Source: Patescibacteria group bacterium
GTDB taxonomy: Bacteria; Patescibacteriota; Patescibacteriia; Patescibacteriales; UBA12465
Reading direction: 5' to 3'
NCBI GenBank assembly: GCA_034002925.1
Contig: JAVEZP010000002.1
Coordinates: 16,655 to 80,654, forward strand
DNA: 64,000 nucleotides
Position 1 is the first letter of the stretch, and each line of letters starts with the position of its first letter. The notes below the pieces were generated by a model. That model saw nothing but the letters and a program-made list of their open reading frames with translations. It searched no databases and was not told the DNA's origin. Shown here piece by piece: positions 7,286 through 59,040 of this stretch. A program made the translations under genes and the position numbers.

Positions 7286-7816
7286 TTATTTTTTTTCTTC
7301 AATCGCTTTAAGAACGTAGACAAGGTTTCTTAAGTTTCCAGCTAAAGCGTTAACAAAACCGGAAACAGGGGCATTAAGGGAGCCCACCAGTTTGGCATAC
7401 AACTCTGTCTTGCTAGGTAATTTAGCCACAGCTTCAATTTCAGCTTTGTCTAAAAGTTTAGCCTCTAAAATACCACCTAAGAAATAGATTTTTTCCGATT
7501 TTTCTTTGTCTTTACGGAAATTATCTAGAACTTTAGCAGCTGCTACTTCGTCTTCATAGGAGAAAACAGCAGCAATTTTACCATCTAGAGTTTTTGTATC
7601 CAAGCTGTCCAAACCTTTGTTTTTGAGCGCTAAGCTTAATAGAGTTTTTTTAGCGACGTAGTATTCACCTTTTTCTTGGCGAAGCTGATCACGTAGAACT
7701 TCATTATCTTTTACGCCCAAAGCATTGAAGCCGGCGAAAACAATTGATTTTGATTTCTCAATTTTTTCCTCCAAGCTGCGCAGGATTTCCTGCTTTTGGA
7801 CTTTGCTTTTTGGCAT
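7286..7816 (-). CDS. rplJ: 50S ribosomal protein L10
   Basis: 176 aa located directly upstream of rplL, with an L10-like sequence (KSKSIVFAGFNALGVKDNEVLRDQLR...). Confidence 0.93.
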   Translation of the reverse strand: MPKSKVQKQEILRSLEEKIEKSKSIVFAGFNALGVKDNEVLRDQLRQEKGEYYVAKKTLLSLALKNKGLDSLDTKTLDGKIAAVFSYEDEVAAAKVLDNFRKDKEKSEKIYFLGGILEAKLLDKAEIEAVAKLPSKTELYAKLVGSLNAPVSGFVNALAGNLRNLVYVLKAIEEKK

Positions 7817-26421: not shown

Positions 26422-26512
26422 ATTTTTAAATTAATTATTACACTACAAATATAACACAAAAAAAATAATTTCAAACATTTTCAGACTTTTCATTAGGGGG
26501 CGATAAAATTAT

Positions 26513-26570
26513 AAAAAAACAGGCCTTTTACACCCTGCTAATTCAACGATGCTTGGGGACAGGGATTCGG
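26513..26570 (-). repeat. Unit E: tRNA-Gln 3'-end-like fragment, best-conserved copy
   Basis: 26550-26570 tgcttggggacagggattcgg against tRNA-Gln 36652-36672 ggctcggggacagggactcga gives 17/21 identical by manual alignment. An A-run and weak hairpin precede it. Confidence 0.6.
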
Positions 26571-26679
26571 CTACACGTCGTCGCGTAAAATGGCTACCCC
26601 GTATAACCTCGTAAACGCGGCACGGGGTTCCGCCATCACGCGACTCACGTAAAATTATCACGCGGCTGCGCCACGTGAT

Positions 26680-27335
26680 AAAAGTAATCTACCACCAGAC
26701 TGAGGTCTGGTGGCTTTGTGTTTGCCGGCCATTCCGGCAAAGACGGTTTTAGTGGTTTAATTTTAATTTAAGGAATTATCTTGTCAAATAGAGATGGTTG
26801 ATCTATCTCATTGTGATGATCTTGGTGTCTGACATATCTCTTGATTATATCTTCATCAATACCTATGCTGGAAACAAAATAACCTCTTGCCCAAAGAGAA
26901 TGTTTTTCATAGAGACCATGGTGTCTTTTTATTTTCTTTTTGAGCCAAGCAGAAGACTTGCCTTTGATTATTTGCATAACATAGAAAACTGAATCCCTAG
27001 GTGTAATGAGAAGACATAAGTGGATATGATCTTCTTGAATACTTAACTCTATTATTTCCCAATGTTTCCATTTACAAACTGATTCAAATATTCGACGTAA
27101 TTCATCTTTGATTTTATTGGTATTTAATACCTTACCTCGAAACTTAGGTGTCCAGACTAAATGGAGCTTTAAATCATAGAAACAATGTGATAATGTACGA
27201 ATGGTGCGCTTTCTTGTTTGATGCATATTATTATAGCACCACTAAAACCAGTCCTGCCGGACTGCTTTTAGTATACAGCGTCGCTTTCAAACGTACACAC
27301 CCCAGCTGTGCTGGTGGTTTATAGAATAACAAAAA
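26680..27335 (-). mobile_element. IS200/IS605-family element (tnpA only) with hairpin-rich arms; boundaries approximate
   Basis: Intact tnpA flanked by hairpins at 26692-26713 (ccaccagac/gtctggtgg), 26722-26740, 27249-27264 (cagtcc/ggactg) and 27302-27314, plus the inverted 12-mer GGTTTTAGTGGT (26745-56) / ACCACTAAAACC (27238-49). Confidence 0.65.
26768..27226 (-). CDS. tnpA: IS200/IS605-family Y1 (HUH) transposase TnpA
   Basis: 152 aa with YDLKLHLVWTPKFR, the HUH motif EDHIHLCLL and the catalytic Tyr context LWARGYFVSS. Confidence 0.9.
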   Translation of the reverse strand: MHQTRKRTIRTLSHCFYDLKLHLVWTPKFRGKVLNTNKIKDELRRIFESVCKWKHWEIIELSIQEDHIHLCLLITPRDSVFYVMQIIKGKSSAWLKKKIKRHHGLYEKHSLWARGYFVSSIGIDEDIIKRYVRHQDHHNEIDQPSLFDKIIP

Positions 27336-36650: not shown

Positions 36651-36724
36651 TGGCTCGGGGACAGGGACTCGAACCCCGATAGCCAGGACCAGAACCTGGA
36701 GTCCTACCATTAGACGATCCCCGA
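36651..36724 (-). tRNA. tRNA-Gln (anticodon CTG), CCA encoded
   Basis: The minus strand reads TCGGGGA TC GTCT AATGGTA GGAC T CCAGG TTCTGGT CCTGG CTAT CGGGG TTCGAGT CCCTG TCCCCGA G CCA, a full cloverleaf with U1-A72 and G73. Confidence 0.95.
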
Positions 36725-48253: not shown

Positions 48254-49360
48254 CTAATAATTAATTTTTGATTTAATAATAATATTTTCAATAATACCGG
48301 TTAAAATAAACAAAGAAATGATGGCACTGCCACCATAACTCACAAAAGGCAGTGAAATGCCAACAACAGGCACAATACCAATGTTCATACCAATATTAAT
48401 AAACATTTGAATAAAAATCAAGCCCATTGCCCCTAAAATAAAATAAATACTAAAATCATTAGGCAGACGCTTAATAGCTACAATGCAACGACTAAAAAAT
48501 AAAGCAAAAAAGAGTAGCAGTAAACTGGAACCAAGAAAACCCAATTCTTCGGCAATCACCGCAAAAATAAAGTCAGTTTGCGCTTCTGGCAAAAACTTTA
48601 ATTGAGACTGAGAACCAAAGCCTACACCTTTGCCATATAAACTACCTGAGCCAACCGCAATAATGGCCTGAGAGACATTATAGCCCTCAGCTAAAGCATT
48701 CTCACCGGGATTCAGAAAAGTTAAAATTCTTTGTTTTTGATATTCCTGAAAGAAAAAAGACCAGGCTAAAATAGATAACAATAAGAAAATACTAAGCACC
48801 GAAAAAAGATATTTTTTAGGAAAATCAACTACTACCACTAACACCAACCAAATAGAACCAAGCATTAAAGCTGAACCAAAATCAGGCTGTAATAACACTA
48901 AAAACATTAACACAACCGTTAAAAAGGCCGAAGTGATAAAATGAGATAAAGATTTAATTTTAGTCGCTAAATCAGCAAAATAAGAGGCTAAGAAAATTAA
49001 TAGTAAAATCTTCACAATCTCAACTGGCTGCACTCCAAAACCAGCTACATCAAACCAAGCCCGAGAACCTCTAATTGAAGAACCGACTAATAAAACAGCC
49101 GTTAGAATAAAAATAGCAAAAAAATAAAGATAACGACTGATACTTTTTAGAAAACGATAATCAATGAAAGTAAACACAAATAAAGCCAGTAGACCAATTC
49201 CGACAAAAACTAATTGTTTATAAAAATTTAAAAGATTTTCTCCGCCCTGACCTAAAGCCACGCTATAAATTTCAGTTAAACCAAAACTAGCCAATAAGAC
49301 AACAGCCGCTAAAAGCGGCCAGTCAAAAGCCTGAAGATATAGTTTGATTTTAGAACGCAT
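48254..49360 (-). CDS. SEDS-family peptidoglycan glycosyltransferase (FtsW/RodA)
   Basis: 368 aa with 10 TM helices, containing ..QPDFGSALM.. and ..DFIFAVIAEELGF... Confidence 0.88.
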   Translation of the reverse strand: MRSKIKLYLQAFDWPLLAAVVLLASFGLTEIYSVALGQGGENLLNFYKQLVFVGIGLLALFVFTFIDYRFLKSISRYLYFFAIFILTAVLLVGSSIRGSRAWFDVAGFGVQPVEIVKILLLIFLASYFADLATKIKSLSHFITSAFLTVVLMFLVLLQPDFGSALMLGSIWLVLVVVVDFPKKYLFSVLSIFLLLSILAWSFFFQEYQKQRILTFLNPGENALAEGYNVSQAIIAVGSGSLYGKGVGFGSQSQLKFLPEAQTDFIFAVIAEELGFLGSSLLLLFFALFFSRCIVAIKRLPNDFSIYFILGAMGLIFIQMFINIGMNIGIVPVVGISLPFVSYGGSAIISLFILTGIIENIIIKSKINY

Positions 49361-49366
49361 AATGTT

Positions 49367-50260
49367 TTAACTACGATAAGGCAAATAAATACTTTCATCT
49401 AAAATATTAACATCAGGAATAATTTCTACCTTATTAGCCCTCTCTCCTCCTGCCGGCCAGCTTAATTGCACCTTTCTATTTTCAAAAGAGAGAAAAGTAT
49501 CTAAATTATATAAATTAACACCAGTAATAACAGAATTGTTAGATAAAATAATATTTAAAGGCAAACGCTTTAAATTATATGCCGTCTTGTTTTCAATATT
49601 AAAAGATAAGCTATGCAAGGGTGTGCGTGCGCTGTAATCTGGGGCTTGATATTCTATATTAGTAATTTCAAAATTCAAACGCTCCCTAAGATAAGTTGAC
49701 CAATCAGGTACTTTGCGCACATTCAGTCTTTGCCAAAAAATATTAATAGTTTGGAATTCTAAATTATTGGCCTGATTAACATTCTGTGCTGGTAAAATTA
49801 AAAACTTTTTAGAGTCTGGCAATACAAAACTACTACCACAAGTTAAATTTTCTCCTTGCGTATTCTCTAAACAATATTCAAAAGTGCCATAATAATTGCT
49901 ATTAGGATTTTTCAGTTCAATTAAAAAATCAAAATTACCACTAACACCAAAAGACTTAAGAATTTTAGCGTCCATAACTTGAGGAGCTGTTGCTTCACGA
50001 TAAGCTTGAGTATCAAATAAATTAGCAGTAATAGTAGCCGCTAAGTCTCTATCCGCTTGGCGACCATAGAGAAAATACATAACATAACTATAACTTGAAT
50101 AAGTAAAAGTAGATGCAGCTACAATAATTAAAAAAATAATAAACACCCTTAACAATCGGCGACGATTAAGAGCTAACCACAAGCCAATGTTCATCTGTTT
50201 TAAGCTTAAGTGCTCACCATTTTCATACTTGCTTAAATCAATCTTTTCTTTCTTTTTCAT
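49367..50260 (-). CDS. Membrane-anchored hypothetical protein
   Basis: 297 aa with one TM helix after a basic N-terminus. No family recognised. Confidence 0.6.
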   Translation of the reverse strand: MKKKEKIDLSKYENGEHLSLKQMNIGLWLALNRRRLLRVFIIFLIIVAASTFTYSSYSYVMYFLYGRQADRDLAATITANLFDTQAYREATAPQVMDAKILKSFGVSGNFDFLIELKNPNSNYYGTFEYCLENTQGENLTCGSSFVLPDSKKFLILPAQNVNQANNLEFQTINIFWQRLNVRKVPDWSTYLRERLNFEITNIEYQAPDYSARTPLHSLSFNIENKTAYNLKRLPLNIILSNNSVITGVNLYNLDTFLSFENRKVQLSWPAGGERANKVEIIPDVNILDESIYLPYRS

Positions 50261-50324
50261 AAATATGATATAATTATAATATTCTAGATTATATCATAAT
50301 TACATATATTTAAAAAGAAAAAAT

Positions 50325-51296
50325 ATGGCTTCAATTCAAGTGCCTTTAAGCGTTCCAAAAAATAAGAAAAGCGAATATGAACGTAACTTCAAATTAGCAA
50401 CCGCTGGCAGTGGTAAACTCCTGCTGTTTGCTGGTGATCAAAAAGTAGAACATTTAAATGATGATTTTTTTGGCCCCAACATTAATCCCGCTGACGCCTC
50501 CCCTGAGCACTTATTTCAAATAGCTAAAAATATTCCTGGGGCTGTTTTAGCCACTCACATCGGCCTCCTGGACCGCTACGGAGCTCACTACAAACAACTA
50601 CCATTCATTCTAAAATTAAATGGCAAGACCGATATTAATAAAAATAAAAATGAAGCCATTAGCACTTCTTGGCTCAGCATGGAACAAGTACTGCGTTTTA
50701 AGGAACAAAGTGGTCTCAAAATTGTTGGTCTTGGTTATACTATTTATTTAGGCAGTGAATTGGAAGCACAAATGCTAAAAGAAGCAGCTCATTTTATCTA
50801 TGAAGCTCATCAGGCAGGCATGTTAGCTATTATTTGGATGTATCCTCGTCATAGTAAGATTAAGAACGAAGATGATGTTCATCTCATTGCCGGTGGAGCT
50901 GGTGTGGCCGCCTCCTTGGGAGCAGATTTTGTTAAAGTTAAATATCCATATAACTCTGCCACTAATGATAAAAAGGCCACTGAATTTCAAGAAGTTATTC
51001 AAGCTGCTGGTAAAACTAGAGTCATTTGTGTGGGTGGTAGTAAGCAAAAAGCTGAAAATCTATTAACTCACCTAGCTCGTCAACTTAAAAACGGTTCAGC
51101 CGGTCTCGCTATGGGTCGTAATCTTCATCAGCGCTCTCTCAGGGAAGCTACTCTACTTGGTCAATCCCTTAGTGCCATGATTCATCATAATATCACTAAA
51201 ACAGCAGCTCTAGATATTCTTAAAGGTAAAGATACAAAGAAGAAAAAAAAGAAACAAGTCAGTAAAAATAAAAGTAAGATTTTAGGTTTGTTTTAA
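50325..51296 (+). CDS. Class I fructose-bisphosphate aldolase, DhnA/FbaB family
   Basis: Blocks match recalled E. coli FbaB: LFAGDQKVEH, LPFILKLN, GYTIYLGSE, GADFVKVKYP (Schiff-base Lys region) and GLAMGRN. It has a poly-Lys C-terminal tail. Confidence 0.8.
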   Translation: MASIQVPLSVPKNKKSEYERNFKLATAGSGKLLLFAGDQKVEHLNDDFFGPNINPADASPEHLFQIAKNIPGAVLATHIGLLDRYGAHYKQLPFILKLNGKTDINKNKNEAISTSWLSMEQVLRFKEQSGLKIVGLGYTIYLGSELEAQMLKEAAHFIYEAHQAGMLAIIWMYPRHSKIKNEDDVHLIAGGAGVAASLGADFVKVKYPYNSATNDKKATEFQEVIQAAGKTRVICVGGSKQKAENLLTHLARQLKNGSAGLAMGRNLHQRSLREATLLGQSLSAMIHHNITKTAALDILKGKDTKKKKKKQVSKNKSKILGLF

Positions 51297-51313
51297 AAAT
51301 TCTCTTCATCCTA

Positions 51314-51342
51314 TTGACAAAAAGTATATCTTATGATATAAT
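51314..51342 (+). promoter_or_regulatory. Perfect-consensus sigma70 promoter
   Basis: TTGACA (51314-19), a 17-nt spacer, then TATAAT (51337-42). Confidence 0.7.
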
Positions 51343-51372
51343 TTTTGGTTATATAGTTCATTCACAAAGGAC

Positions 51373-51427
51373 AATTAGATTAATTATTAAGTTTATTAAC
51401 ATAGTAGATTTAATAATTAATCTAATT
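51373..51427 (+). promoter_or_regulatory. Perfect 18-bp inverted repeat in the leader (RNA hairpin or operator)
   Basis: AATTAGATTAATTATTAA (51373-90) and TTAATAATTAATCTAATT (51410-27) with a 19-nt loop, lying between the promoter and the small ORF. Confidence 0.6.
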
Positions 51428-51448
51428 AATCACTCCAAAAAAATATAA

Positions 51449-51598
51449 ATGAAAATAAAAATCAAAGAAGGAATGGTAACTATGACAATGGCCAGAAAAA
51501 ACAAACCAATGGCCATTGTTTTGTCCATATTTTTTGTAGCCACAGTCTTTATGGCTGGTGGCTATATTGGGCACATAATAGCCCAATCAATGTTTTAA
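51449..51598 (+). CDS. Small hydrophobic membrane peptide (49 aa, or 38 aa from ATG 51482), not in the ORF track
   Basis: Translation: MKIKIKEGMVTMTMARKNKPMAIVLSIFFVATVFMAGGYIGHIIAQSMF*. GAAGGA lies about 10 nt upstream of ATG 51482. A terminator follows. Confidence 0.55.
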   Translation: MKIKIKEGMVTMTMARKNKPMAIVLSIFFVATVFMAGGYIGHIIAQSMF

Positions 51599-51606
51599 TT
51601 TCACTG

Positions 51607-51642
51607 CCCCATTGCTATAAGATAATAGTTATGGGGTTTTTT
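51607..51642 (+). terminator. Intrinsic terminator of the small-peptide gene
   Basis: Stem ccccat..atgggg with an inner ctat/atag extension, then TTTTTT. Confidence 0.75.
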
Positions 51643-51756
51643 ATTTCAATCGTTCAATCTAAAAAAGCCTCTTTGCAGAAAGGCTTTTTATATAATATTT
51701 TTAAAAACGTCTTTTTTTGTCTGTATAAACTATTGTTTAATTTTATATCATTATAT

Positions 51757-53253
51757 TTAATTAACTACATCTACTTTAATGCGATCAGGTAAAATAGGGG
51801 CGCTTTGAATAAAAGCAGGAAAAAACTCTAAACGATATGAATCTATTTCCGGAAAAGAACGTAGATATTCAGAAATTTGTTCCTTATTTAAACCAACCAA
51901 TTGTCTTCTATCAACTAAATCAGCATCTGTTCGTAAAGACATATTAGCTTTAAAAGCAGCGCTCACACTTACGCTTTCAGTTTCCCGATCATAGGCATCT
52001 AAACGATACACAATATTATTAGGATCAAAACCAGTTAAACGTTTATCATCTGGCAATAAGAAAGACAATTTAGCTTTAATTAAAGCCTCAGCTTGTTCTT
52101 TGGGAAAAAGAGCAACTACTAATTCATTGCTAGCAGAGACATTAAAACTATCTATTTCTTCTCCTAATTTAACACCTAATTCAATTTTAATACGATCATT
52201 ATCTAATAAATAGGCCAAGGCTTGATTAGGTTCAGCTAAGGCAGCAATTTCCGCTTCTGCTTTTTTGCTTAATTGATTTTTAATATCAATCATCGCTTGG
52301 TCTAAATCGCTCTGTCTAACATAACGTTTAATCTGATGACGATATTCAAAATTCTTTTCACTAGTGGCATAAATTCTGTCTTGCAAACCTAACCACAAAC
52401 CAGGGATACTAAAGCGACTGGGGCCAATTGCCATTTCTTGACCTGGTTGATCAGCATAAACTTCGACCGTAAGAGTAGAATTAGCCGGAATATTAACCGA
52501 CTCTTTCAAACGATATAATTTATTATCTTCACTTAAGAGACGAGTATTAACCACTAAAGGCTGAGCTCGACTATATTCATTATGTAGAGTTACTTCCCCA
52601 ACTACTTCTTCTCCTAAAATTTCTTCTCCACTCGCTTCATAATTTTTTTCAATATTTAAATCAATAAATTTAACTTCACCTTGTAAATTACGAGAACTAG
52701 CAGCGATTACACTATCTACTTGAGTATCTTCAGCGGATACCCGAAAAGAAAGAGTGTCAGCCACGCTTTCAAAATTAGGTTGAATAGATATTTTTAAACT
52801 AGGGAGTAAAAAATAAGCGGCCGCTACTAAGAGCAATAAAGTTAAAAGACCTGATTGTAAAGCCATGCGTCGATATAATTTTAATGATTTGCGCGGTGAC
52901 TTGAGTGCAGTTTCAGTCGCAAAATTTACGCCCCCTCCTTCAATCTTATTACTCTCTTTTCTTTCTTTAATCTCAGTGACCAAATCAGAAAAAAACTTTT
53001 TTTGTACATCTATGTTATCACTATCTTGCAACTCATCTTCTAAAAAAGAGTTCTGTTCTTGTAATAAGACGTCTTCATTGTCAGTAATAACGTCAATCGT
53101 AATAGCCTGAGTAGCTGAGCTCTGTTCTTTATCTTTTTTAACACTAGCTTTTGGAGCACGAGTTTTTTTAATGGCAGTAGAACGAGTTTTACGCACTACC
53201 TTCCTCTTTTTAGGAGTTTCATTTTTCTCCTCTTCTTTTTTTATTTTAGGCAT
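51757..53253 (-). CDS. Hypothetical protein with a Lys-rich N-terminus and one TM helix
   Basis: ATG 53253 is preceded by GGAGGA. The track start at 53274 is a TTG. About 498 aa. No family recognised. Confidence 0.65.
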   Translation of the reverse strand: MPKIKKEEEKNETPKKRKVVRKTRSTAIKKTRAPKASVKKDKEQSSATQAITIDVITDNEDVLLQEQNSFLEDELQDSDNIDVQKKFFSDLVTEIKERKESNKIEGGGVNFATETALKSPRKSLKLYRRMALQSGLLTLLLLVAAAYFLLPSLKISIQPNFESVADTLSFRVSAEDTQVDSVIAASSRNLQGEVKFIDLNIEKNYEASGEEILGEEVVGEVTLHNEYSRAQPLVVNTRLLSEDNKLYRLKESVNIPANSTLTVEVYADQPGQEMAIGPSRFSIPGLWLGLQDRIYATSEKNFEYRHQIKRYVRQSDLDQAMIDIKNQLSKKAEAEIAALAEPNQALAYLLDNDRIKIELGVKLGEEIDSFNVSASNELVVALFPKEQAEALIKAKLSFLLPDDKRLTGFDPNNIVYRLDAYDRETESVSVSAAFKANMSLRTDADLVDRRQLVGLNKEQISEYLRSFPEIDSYRLEFFPAFIQSAPILPDRIKVDVVN

Positions 53254-53374
53254 AAGCTTGTTTCCTCCGGACAAGCCGGACGCATACTAATGAAGAATAA
53301 CATCATCACCGGCAGTGATGATTTTTTTGATGTTTCTATTATAACAAATTTTAGGCATCCTCACAATAAATTTT

Positions 53375-58908: not shown

Positions 58909-58937
58909 TTGACAATTGAATATTTATTTATTATACT
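58909..58937 (+). promoter_or_regulatory. Candidate promoter of tRNA-Leu
   Basis: TTGACA, then 17 nt, then TATACT, ending 20 nt before the tRNA 5' end. Confidence 0.55.
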
Positions 58938-58956: not shown

Positions 58957-59040
58957 GCCCAGGTGTCGGAACTGGTAGACGAACGCGACTCAAAATCGCG
59001 CGGCCGTAAGGCCATGCGGGTTCGATTCCCGCTCTGGGCA
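58957..59040 (+). tRNA. tRNA-Leu (anticodon CAA), class II with a long variable arm, CCA not encoded
   Basis: Acceptor stem GCCCAGG..., anticodon arm CGCGA CTCAAAA TCGCG, variable arm GGCC GTAA GGCC, T arm GCGGG TTCGATT CCCGC, then TCTGGGC A. Confidence 0.93.

Follow-up and report, generated by a model that had tools for sequence, protein, structure and literature searches.

An orphan unit with a near-ideal promoter and an unusually folded RNA between two converging genes of a Patescibacteria genome

A 460-bp spacer between two converging genes (51297-51756) raises the question of what a short, apparently self-contained stretch of DNA could encode: a type I toxin, as an earlier note had proposed from its layout, another small membrane peptide, or an RNA. 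The spacer lies within the 64-kb stretch of AT-rich DNA (~33% GC) that was analysed as a whole and is called the window here. It is flanked by a gene for a DeoC/DhnA-type aldolase (50325-51296, plus strand; Pfam PF01791) and by a gene for a 498/505-aa protein without Pfam domains (51757-53274, minus strand), after which dnaE comes next. The closest relatives in genome and metagenome collections are MAGs labelled Patescibacteria, Parcubacteria or Falkowbacteria. The sequence features listed in the earlier note are all present and exceed chance. They belong to a real plus-strand unit of ~295 nt that fits wholly in the spacer, and that is best described as an orphan accessory mini-gene, strongly promoted and unusually folded.

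The unit is headed by a sigma-70-type promoter (51314-51342, plus strand) that combines a -35 element TTGACA (51314-19), a 17-nt spacer, an extended -10 TG (51334-35) and a -10 element TATAAT (51337-42), with a predicted transcription start near 51348-50 (~51349). It had been called a textbook promoter, and indeed no other site in the window scores 12/12; the exact TTGACA-N17-TATAAT occurs once in 64 kb versus 0.01 times expected from shuffles. With hexamers 17 bp apart on one side and a GC-containing stem that runs into a U-tract on the other, the locus has the composition of a sigma-70 promoter/intrinsic terminator unit. The 11/12 promoter sites in the window include those ahead of both tRNA genes, one directly 5' of tRNA-Leu (58909-58937, plus strand; gene at 58957) and one directly 5' of tRNA-Gln (36790-36762, minus strand; gene at 36724). 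Since sites of this quality precede the two tRNA genes, the promoter type is one that the organism uses, and within the window its best representative is 51314-51342. Elsewhere, a TTGACA-16-TAAAAT at ~8012 (minus strand) would imply a leader of ~160 nt before a 176-aa ORF (7286-7816), which we take to resemble ribosomal protein L10.

The promoter overlaps a 13-nt inverted repeat, CAAAAAGTATATC / GATATAATTTTTG (51318-51347; 92% complementary; -9.1 kcal/mol), with an A-tract/stem/loop/stem/T-tract layout that resembles a decayed bidirectional terminator. The palindrome is suggestive of a promoter descended from an ancestral terminator, but in shuffle tests its homology to the relatives' terminators did not reach significance for 10 of the 12 relatives, and we treat such a descent as speculation only.

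Transcription from this promoter would yield a 5' leader of ~100 nt (51349-51448; ~20% GC), versus leaders of 15-50 nt inferred for other genes in the window. At gene starts throughout the window (e.g. 50300-50324 and 49361-49385) -10 boxes are often found just 20-60 nt upstream, so that the leaders must be short. No perfect close-range inverted repeat in the 64 kb is longer than the 18-bp one that had been reported for the leader (51373-90/51410-27); the runner-up measures 15 bp and the shuffles reach at most 12 bp. As plus-strand RNA the 18-bp repeat even extends to 26 uninterrupted base pairs closed by the loop ACA (hairpin P1, 51373-51427; arms 51373-98/51402-27), the 18-bp core being followed by 8 more pairs, 3 of them G-U. 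The predicted folding energy of P1 is -23 to -25 kcal/mol (z = -7.9). On the minus strand, the three G-U positions become A-C mismatches and just the 18-bp core forms (-14.8 versus -23.3 kcal/mol).

P1 is followed by an A-rich linker (51428-51448; mean P(unpaired) 0.83), predicted to be unstructured and located immediately 5' of ATG 51449, and then by three more hairpins. H2 (51484-51520; 11 bp, GACAAUGGCCA/UGGCCAUUGUU; 15-nt A-rich loop; -16.1 kcal/mol) buries ATG 51488 and contains the direct repeat CAATGGCCA twice. Further downstream within the same reading frame H3 (51536-65, 12 bp) and H4 (51566-87, 7 bp) abut each other (51536-51587) and jointly account for -27 kcal/mol. For the plus strand the folding z-score is -8.1 over the whole unit and -5.5 over the ORF part, versus -1.9 for the opposite strand, and the unit ranks third and seventh among 4256 folding windows by GC-corrected folding energy. 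In total 8 G-U pairs were counted in the predicted helices, which correspond to A-C mismatches on the other strand.

Despite this degree of structure, no Rfam 15 family matched the locus at E <= 10, nor did a scan of the whole window at gathering thresholds assign one to it; the best matches were terminator-like, with 14-26 bits versus thresholds of 47-115, and the only RNA genes detected in the whole window were two tRNAs. A housekeeping RNA (6S, SRP, tmRNA or RNase P) can be ruled out, given that no model matches and that the sister species lacks the unit. The same holds for an attenuator or leader peptide, as there is no co-directional gene downstream.

At the 3' end, the strong terminator that was said to follow the ORF was found as T1 (51606-51643; stem 51606-37 of 7+5 bp, then U6; -15.8 kcal/mol), which starts 8 nt past the stop codon and whose stem is shared with one relative, L027. 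A single 21-mer of the T1 tail also matched a viral contig (L032); we treated this as a chance match to an unrelated terminator. Downstream of T1 there is another terminator, T2 (51662-51689; AAAAAGCCTCT..AGGCTTTTT), which is bidirectional, serves the converging 498/505-aa gene and resembles the single terminator found in the relatives. Beyond T2 lies a remnant of the ancestral shared terminator (51698-51720), comprising the loop, right arm and T-tract, TTTTTAAAAACGTCTTTTTTTG, of a structure that is intact in the relatives. Its similarity to the corresponding sequence of L028 (z = 4.7) was equalled by none of 300 shuffles.

Between P1 and T1 the plus strand contains the expected ORF of 49 aa, MKIKIKEGMVTMTMARKNKPMAIVLSIFFVATVFMAGGYIGHIIAQSMF (51449-51598), or 38 aa when read from ATG 51482; other in-frame starts are located at 51488 and 51509 (29 aa). 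The gene callers picked the 49-aa form. The GAAGGA motif that had been put forward as the SD of ATG 51482 is present (AAGAAGGA, 51465-51472, 9 nt before the ATG), yet it supports this start weakly. It is atypical for the genome: SD-like 4-mers occur within 25 nt upstream of the start codon for 3 of the 45 long ORFs in the window, versus ~9 of 45 expected by chance according to a rough composition-based estimate. Since the genome almost never uses an SD, the motif carries little weight. The near-absence of SD motifs is consistent with the loss of the anti-SD in part of the Parcubacteria, the anti-SD motif being missing in about half of those surveyed (PMC9297842). The usual gene-start context in this genome is A/T-rich (e.g. 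AAAAAT-ATG). ATG 51449 is preceded by CCAAAAAAATATAA, predicted to be 83% unpaired, and provides the best fit to this pattern. The region 5' of it also has the highest predicted accessibility of the four candidate ATGs (51449, 51482, 51488 and 51509), none of which is fully accessible.

Whether the frame is translated is less clear. The basic N-terminus and the single TM helix that had been read from it are there, the latter with the motif G37xxxG41 and without a polar C-terminus following it, but the evidence for translation is weak, with codon usage in the bottom 5%. The CAI-like value of the ORF (0.547) is lower than that of every gene in the window and falls in the bottom 4.6% of genomic 49-codon chunks, and the frame likelihood does not discriminate, frame 3 being as 'coding' as frame 1. 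In dinucleotide shuffles of the transcribed region an ATG-initiated ORF of at least 49 codons appeared in 4.5% of cases, and one that was also TM-like in 1.9%; an ORF of at least 38 codons appeared in 15%. The ORF thus exceeds chance only modestly. Methionine accounts for 14% of its residues and four of its five alanine codons are the rare GCC, all four within hairpin stems, which suggests an ORF sequence dictated by RNA structure. In addition, the minus strand carries an overlapping hydrophobic ORF (51430-51528; 32 aa from ATG or 37 aa from GTG, MDKTMAIGLFFLAIVIVTIPSLIFIFIYIFLE), which is more hydrophobic than the plus-strand ORF and has a start context typical of the genome (ACAAAAAAT-ATG). 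The coding status of the 49-codon frame is therefore uncertain, and the RNA-level evidence for the unit outweighs the coding evidence. More generally, an SD combined with a hydrophobic ORF is a weak argument for a peptide gene in SD-less, AT-rich genomes; strand-specific RNA structure and comparative synteny are more informative at this locus.

Homology searches identified the peptide as an orphan. Beyond the query itself no homologue was found in 5.8e9 clusters by a word-indexed search or in 1.84e9 representatives by full phmmer/HMMER, and the comparisons with viral contigs, Pfam, NCBIfam, PHROGs, PADLOC and PDB yielded no significant match. The earlier note had itself counted a lack of conservation against its proposal. 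At the DNA level, only short matches to the consensus promoter or to terminators were found in phages and plasmids. Neither blastn nor tblastn found a second copy of the module within the 64-kb window, the only repeats found being short and internal. A MITE, IS or PATE copy can be ruled out for the window, as a second copy is absent and the module bears no similarity to the IS200 element at 26.7 kb.

Within the species, the peptide is present on 16 contigs, with the same gene context on all 10 that were examined, and the module is identical in 10 strain-level contigs, where the spacer shows no substitutions and one G-run differs in length in a single contig. Across these 10 contigs no SNPs occur in 51249-51882, which should not be read as constraint because the SNPs of the population are patchy in a recombination-like way. 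Over 49300-53300, the within-species SNPs of the strain contigs (L001-L010 and L031) are concentrated in dense patches, such as ~48 differences in 50363-50543 that are found in L031 only, and two patches (50897-50927 and 52099-52177) common to L001 and L009. Such patches suggest frequent recombination between strains, or else chimeric metagenome assemblies.

Outside the species the module is absent from the orthologous site in at least 15 relatives. In 12 of these (L012, L014-L018, L021, L028, L030, L033, L035 and L036) the site is a spacer of 50-85 bp with one bidirectional terminator of the type AAAAAAGACG...CGTCTTTTTT; three others (L013, L022 and L034) have other content. The module is lacking even in the sister species L021, whose nucleotide identity is ~92% over 2.7 kb and reaches 95% for the downstream gene. 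The more distant L027, with flanks that are ~70-80% identical, has kept a block with 77/82 identity that consists of the T1 stem, the spacer, T2 and the remnant. L027 is without the 258-bp core of leader, hairpins and ORF, and a TATAAT-containing stretch directly abuts T1. The homology of the 5' part of its spacer to the module was not significant, 323 of 500 shuffles scoring equally well. L027 could be a deletion derivative or the window could carry a nested insertion, the similarities that bear on the choice being short and non-significant. The 82-nt non-coding block itself (51631-51712 in the window, 3557-3638 in L027), which comprises the right arm of T1, the spacer, T2 and the remnant of the old terminator, shows 94% identity between the two genomes, versus 70-80% for the genes on either side, with almost all differences in a hairpin loop. 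This likeness could reflect a recent transfer or an unusual constraint on the intergenic terminator region.

The neighbouring aldolase gene (50325-51296) is a recombination mosaic with respect to L021, L027, L028 and L030. Its middle part has 90-99% identity with the sister species L021, while its 3' third has 52-69% identity with L021 but 73-90% with the more distant L027 clade, and the lysine-rich C-terminal tails vary in step with this 3'-third mosaic. The mosaicism of the 3' third implies that the locus has been reshuffled by recombination. The module is accessory and dispensable.

The likeliest product of the unit, at roughly 45% in our estimate, is an mRNA that encodes a small N-in membrane peptide and whose 5' helix affects the stability or processing of the RNA. 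The unit is accessory and lineage-restricted, and it stands in the position of the one terminator shared by two converging housekeeping genes, the aldolase gene and the 498-aa gene. The near-ideal sigma-70 promoter would then drive an abundant RNA of ~295 nt (~51349 to ~51643), in which the 26-bp helix near the 5' end would act on the RNA itself, by stabilising it or by offering RNase III a site for processing. The A-rich single-stranded stretch would be the likely ribosome entry site in an organism that initiates independently of an SD, and the 49-codon frame, starting at 51449 or yielding shorter forms, would give a single-pass membrane peptide. The three hairpins inside the frame may, together with T1, stabilise the RNA and throttle translation.

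A structured sRNA, with the ~295-nt transcript as its product and the frame as a by-product of T-rich, palindrome-rich sequence, is a close rival of this mRNA since the RNA-level evidence is the stronger kind, though we regard it as somewhat unlikely. It would account for a structure signal that is strong and strand-specific next to weak coding signals, for hydrophobic ORFs on both strands, for the ease with which shuffles yield frames of at least 38 (15%) or 49 codons (4.5%), and for an SD-like motif that is irrelevant in this genome; the other top promoters of the window, moreover, include two that serve stable RNAs, the tRNAs. It is less easily reconciled with a frame that spans almost exactly the distance from the A-rich stretch to the terminator and that encodes a basic N-terminus plus a helix-length hydrophobic run (p about 0.02). 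Nor could a target or partner be identified, or an Rfam family even at E <= 10, and the absence from the sister species argues against a housekeeping RNA. Rather improbable, in our view, is a functionless recombination scar at a mosaic locus, in which promoter-like and hairpin sequences arose by chance. The mosaic 3' third of the aldolase gene (52-69% to L021, 73-90% to L027), the disrupted ancestral terminator, the orphan sequence and the similarity of L027 to a version without the 258-bp transcribed core, which makes that core dispensable, would all fit a scar. Chance would, on the other hand, have to supply independent optimal signals in the right order on one strand, i.e. a promoter expected 0.01 times, a 26-bp helix kept by G-U pairs, an ORF and a terminator, in a unit that is identical in 10 strain-level contigs. 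The optimal promoter, the G-U-kept helix, the A-rich stretch, the space-filling frame and the identity between strains together argue for a real and strongly transcribed unit.

A type I toxin-antitoxin (TA) module, in either orientation, seems to us distinctly improbable. In one arrangement the plus-strand ORF would be the toxin and the antitoxin RNA would start from a weak minus-strand promoter (51649 to 51622); in the other the 32-aa minus-strand ORF would be the toxin and the abundant structured plus-strand RNA its antitoxin. In hok/sok-type systems the strongest promoter is that of the RNA antitoxin, a pattern to which the strong plus-strand promoter fits in the reversed arrangement. A small TM peptide and a long structured RNA at one locus, its patchy accessory distribution amid recombination, and the overlap of hydrophobic ORFs on both strands would also agree with a TA module. 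An antisense RNA antitoxin was sought in the sequence. The candidate promoter, TTGAAA-16-TATTAT (51622-51649, minus strand; 10/12), has its -35 element inside the block conserved with L027, and a second promoter-like site (51604 to 51575) matches at 9/12, but such minus-strand sites are no better than chance (7 found versus 11.5 expected in shuffles), a clear minus-strand terminator was not seen at the locus and the minus strand folds with z = -1.9. Models of known toxin families in Pfam, NCBIfam and PADLOC, as well as PHROGs and PDB, were not matched either. A full-text literature search found no paper mentioning type I TA together with Patescibacteria, and a TA pair at this locus would, going by that search, be the first for the superphylum. 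To a very young gene near its origin in a reduced genome, for an RNA or for a membrane peptide that is possibly toxin-like, built at a disrupted intergenic terminator, we assign little probability. Its promoter would overlie the decayed terminator-like palindrome. Recombination between lineages would have spread the unit or led to its loss, L027 being a deletion derivative.

The published recognition features of type I toxins (PMC2887945) allow the toxin reading to be judged in detail. The earlier note was right that promoter, structured leader, hydrophobic ORF and terminator make up a type I toxin-like layout, but the specific supports are weaker than it stated. According to the published TM criterion a toxin is shorter than 70 aa and has at least 10 of 15 residues that are I, V, L, F, C, M or A (PMC2887945); the peptide has 13 of 15 in AIVLSIFFVATVFMA. 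A short TM peptide is the only one of the recognition features that was found. Rather than a polar, charged or aromatic cluster, the C-terminus reads ...GHIIAQSMF, all K, R and E being confined to residues 1-19, and tandem duplications or paralogues are absent from the 64-kb window. The published search further demanded at least 400 nt of free sequence upstream and at least 250 nt downstream, versus 152 nt here between the aldolase stop and ATG 51449 and 158 nt between the ORF stop codon and the converging gene. The label "toxin" is not supported by any test that was run.

Several known systems share part of these characteristics. Type I toxin mRNAs (e.g. Fst/Ldr, TxpA/BsrG, Hok, DinQ and Zor; PMC2887945, PMC8309996) likewise encode a short single-TM peptide in an intergenic position, are long and highly folded with a promoter and a terminator of their own, and have an accessory, lineage-specific distribution. 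Unlike them, the unit has no identifiable antitoxin RNA and no sequence relation to any toxin family, its charged cluster is N-terminal instead of C-terminal, and it is single-copy and near its flanking genes. Characterised toxin genes are not known to have promoters as strong as that of the unit. Sequestration of the RBS is a common control of type I toxin mRNAs; it has no obvious counterpart in the unit because initiation in the host is not SD-based. Small bacterial membrane proteins of less than 50 aa, e.g. AcrZ, MgrB, KdpF and CydX, resemble the peptide in length, in the basic N-terminus followed by one helix (positive-inside) and in a GxxxG-type motif. These proteins are conserved across genera and usually encoded within, or next to, their partner's operon, whereas the unit, an orphan, lies between converging genes that are unrelated.

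Dual-function or peptide-encoding sRNAs such as SgrS/SgrT, RNAIII/hld and SR1/SR1P are similar in that a structured small RNA with strong expression, predicted in our case, contains a short frame, and dissimilar in that a base-pairing target, a conserved seed or a conserved peptide is not demonstrable for the unit. Leader hairpins that are processed by RNase III or stabilise the RNA are known from phage lambda N, the T7 early leaders and the pnp and rnc leaders. As in those, a helix of more than 20 bp, the length of an RNase III substrate, is located in the 5' leader; the putative substrate helix of the unit differs in being purely A-U/G-U and in starting 25 nt from the predicted 5' end.

The locus is a new orphan case of a lineage-specific small-ORF or sRNA gene, a kind of feature that is itself known. 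If expressed, it would rank among the most strongly promoted units in the window of a minimal, symbiotic-type genome, and yet be species-specific. Orphan mini-genes of this type are candidates for functions in host interaction, membrane stress or addiction that are invisible to homology-based annotation. As it stands, the locus is valuable as a target for an expression study and not as a discovery; the interest would grow if sense and antisense transcripts overlapped or if either peptide proved toxic.

Finally, a different region (26480-27226, minus strand) contains the gene for an IS200-like Y1 transposase (26768-27226, minus strand; Pfam PF01797, E = 3e-31). An extremely structured stretch of ~230-290 nt lies 3' of the transposase gene on the same strand, with a GC content of ~50-55% versus 33% for the genome. 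This stretch tops the window-wide folding scan (-108 kcal/mol, z = -6.7) and ends in a terminator-like hairpin plus U-run. It had no Rfam match at E <= 1 and no TnpB/IscB ORF was seen beside it; the stretch may represent an uncharacterised IS-associated RNA.
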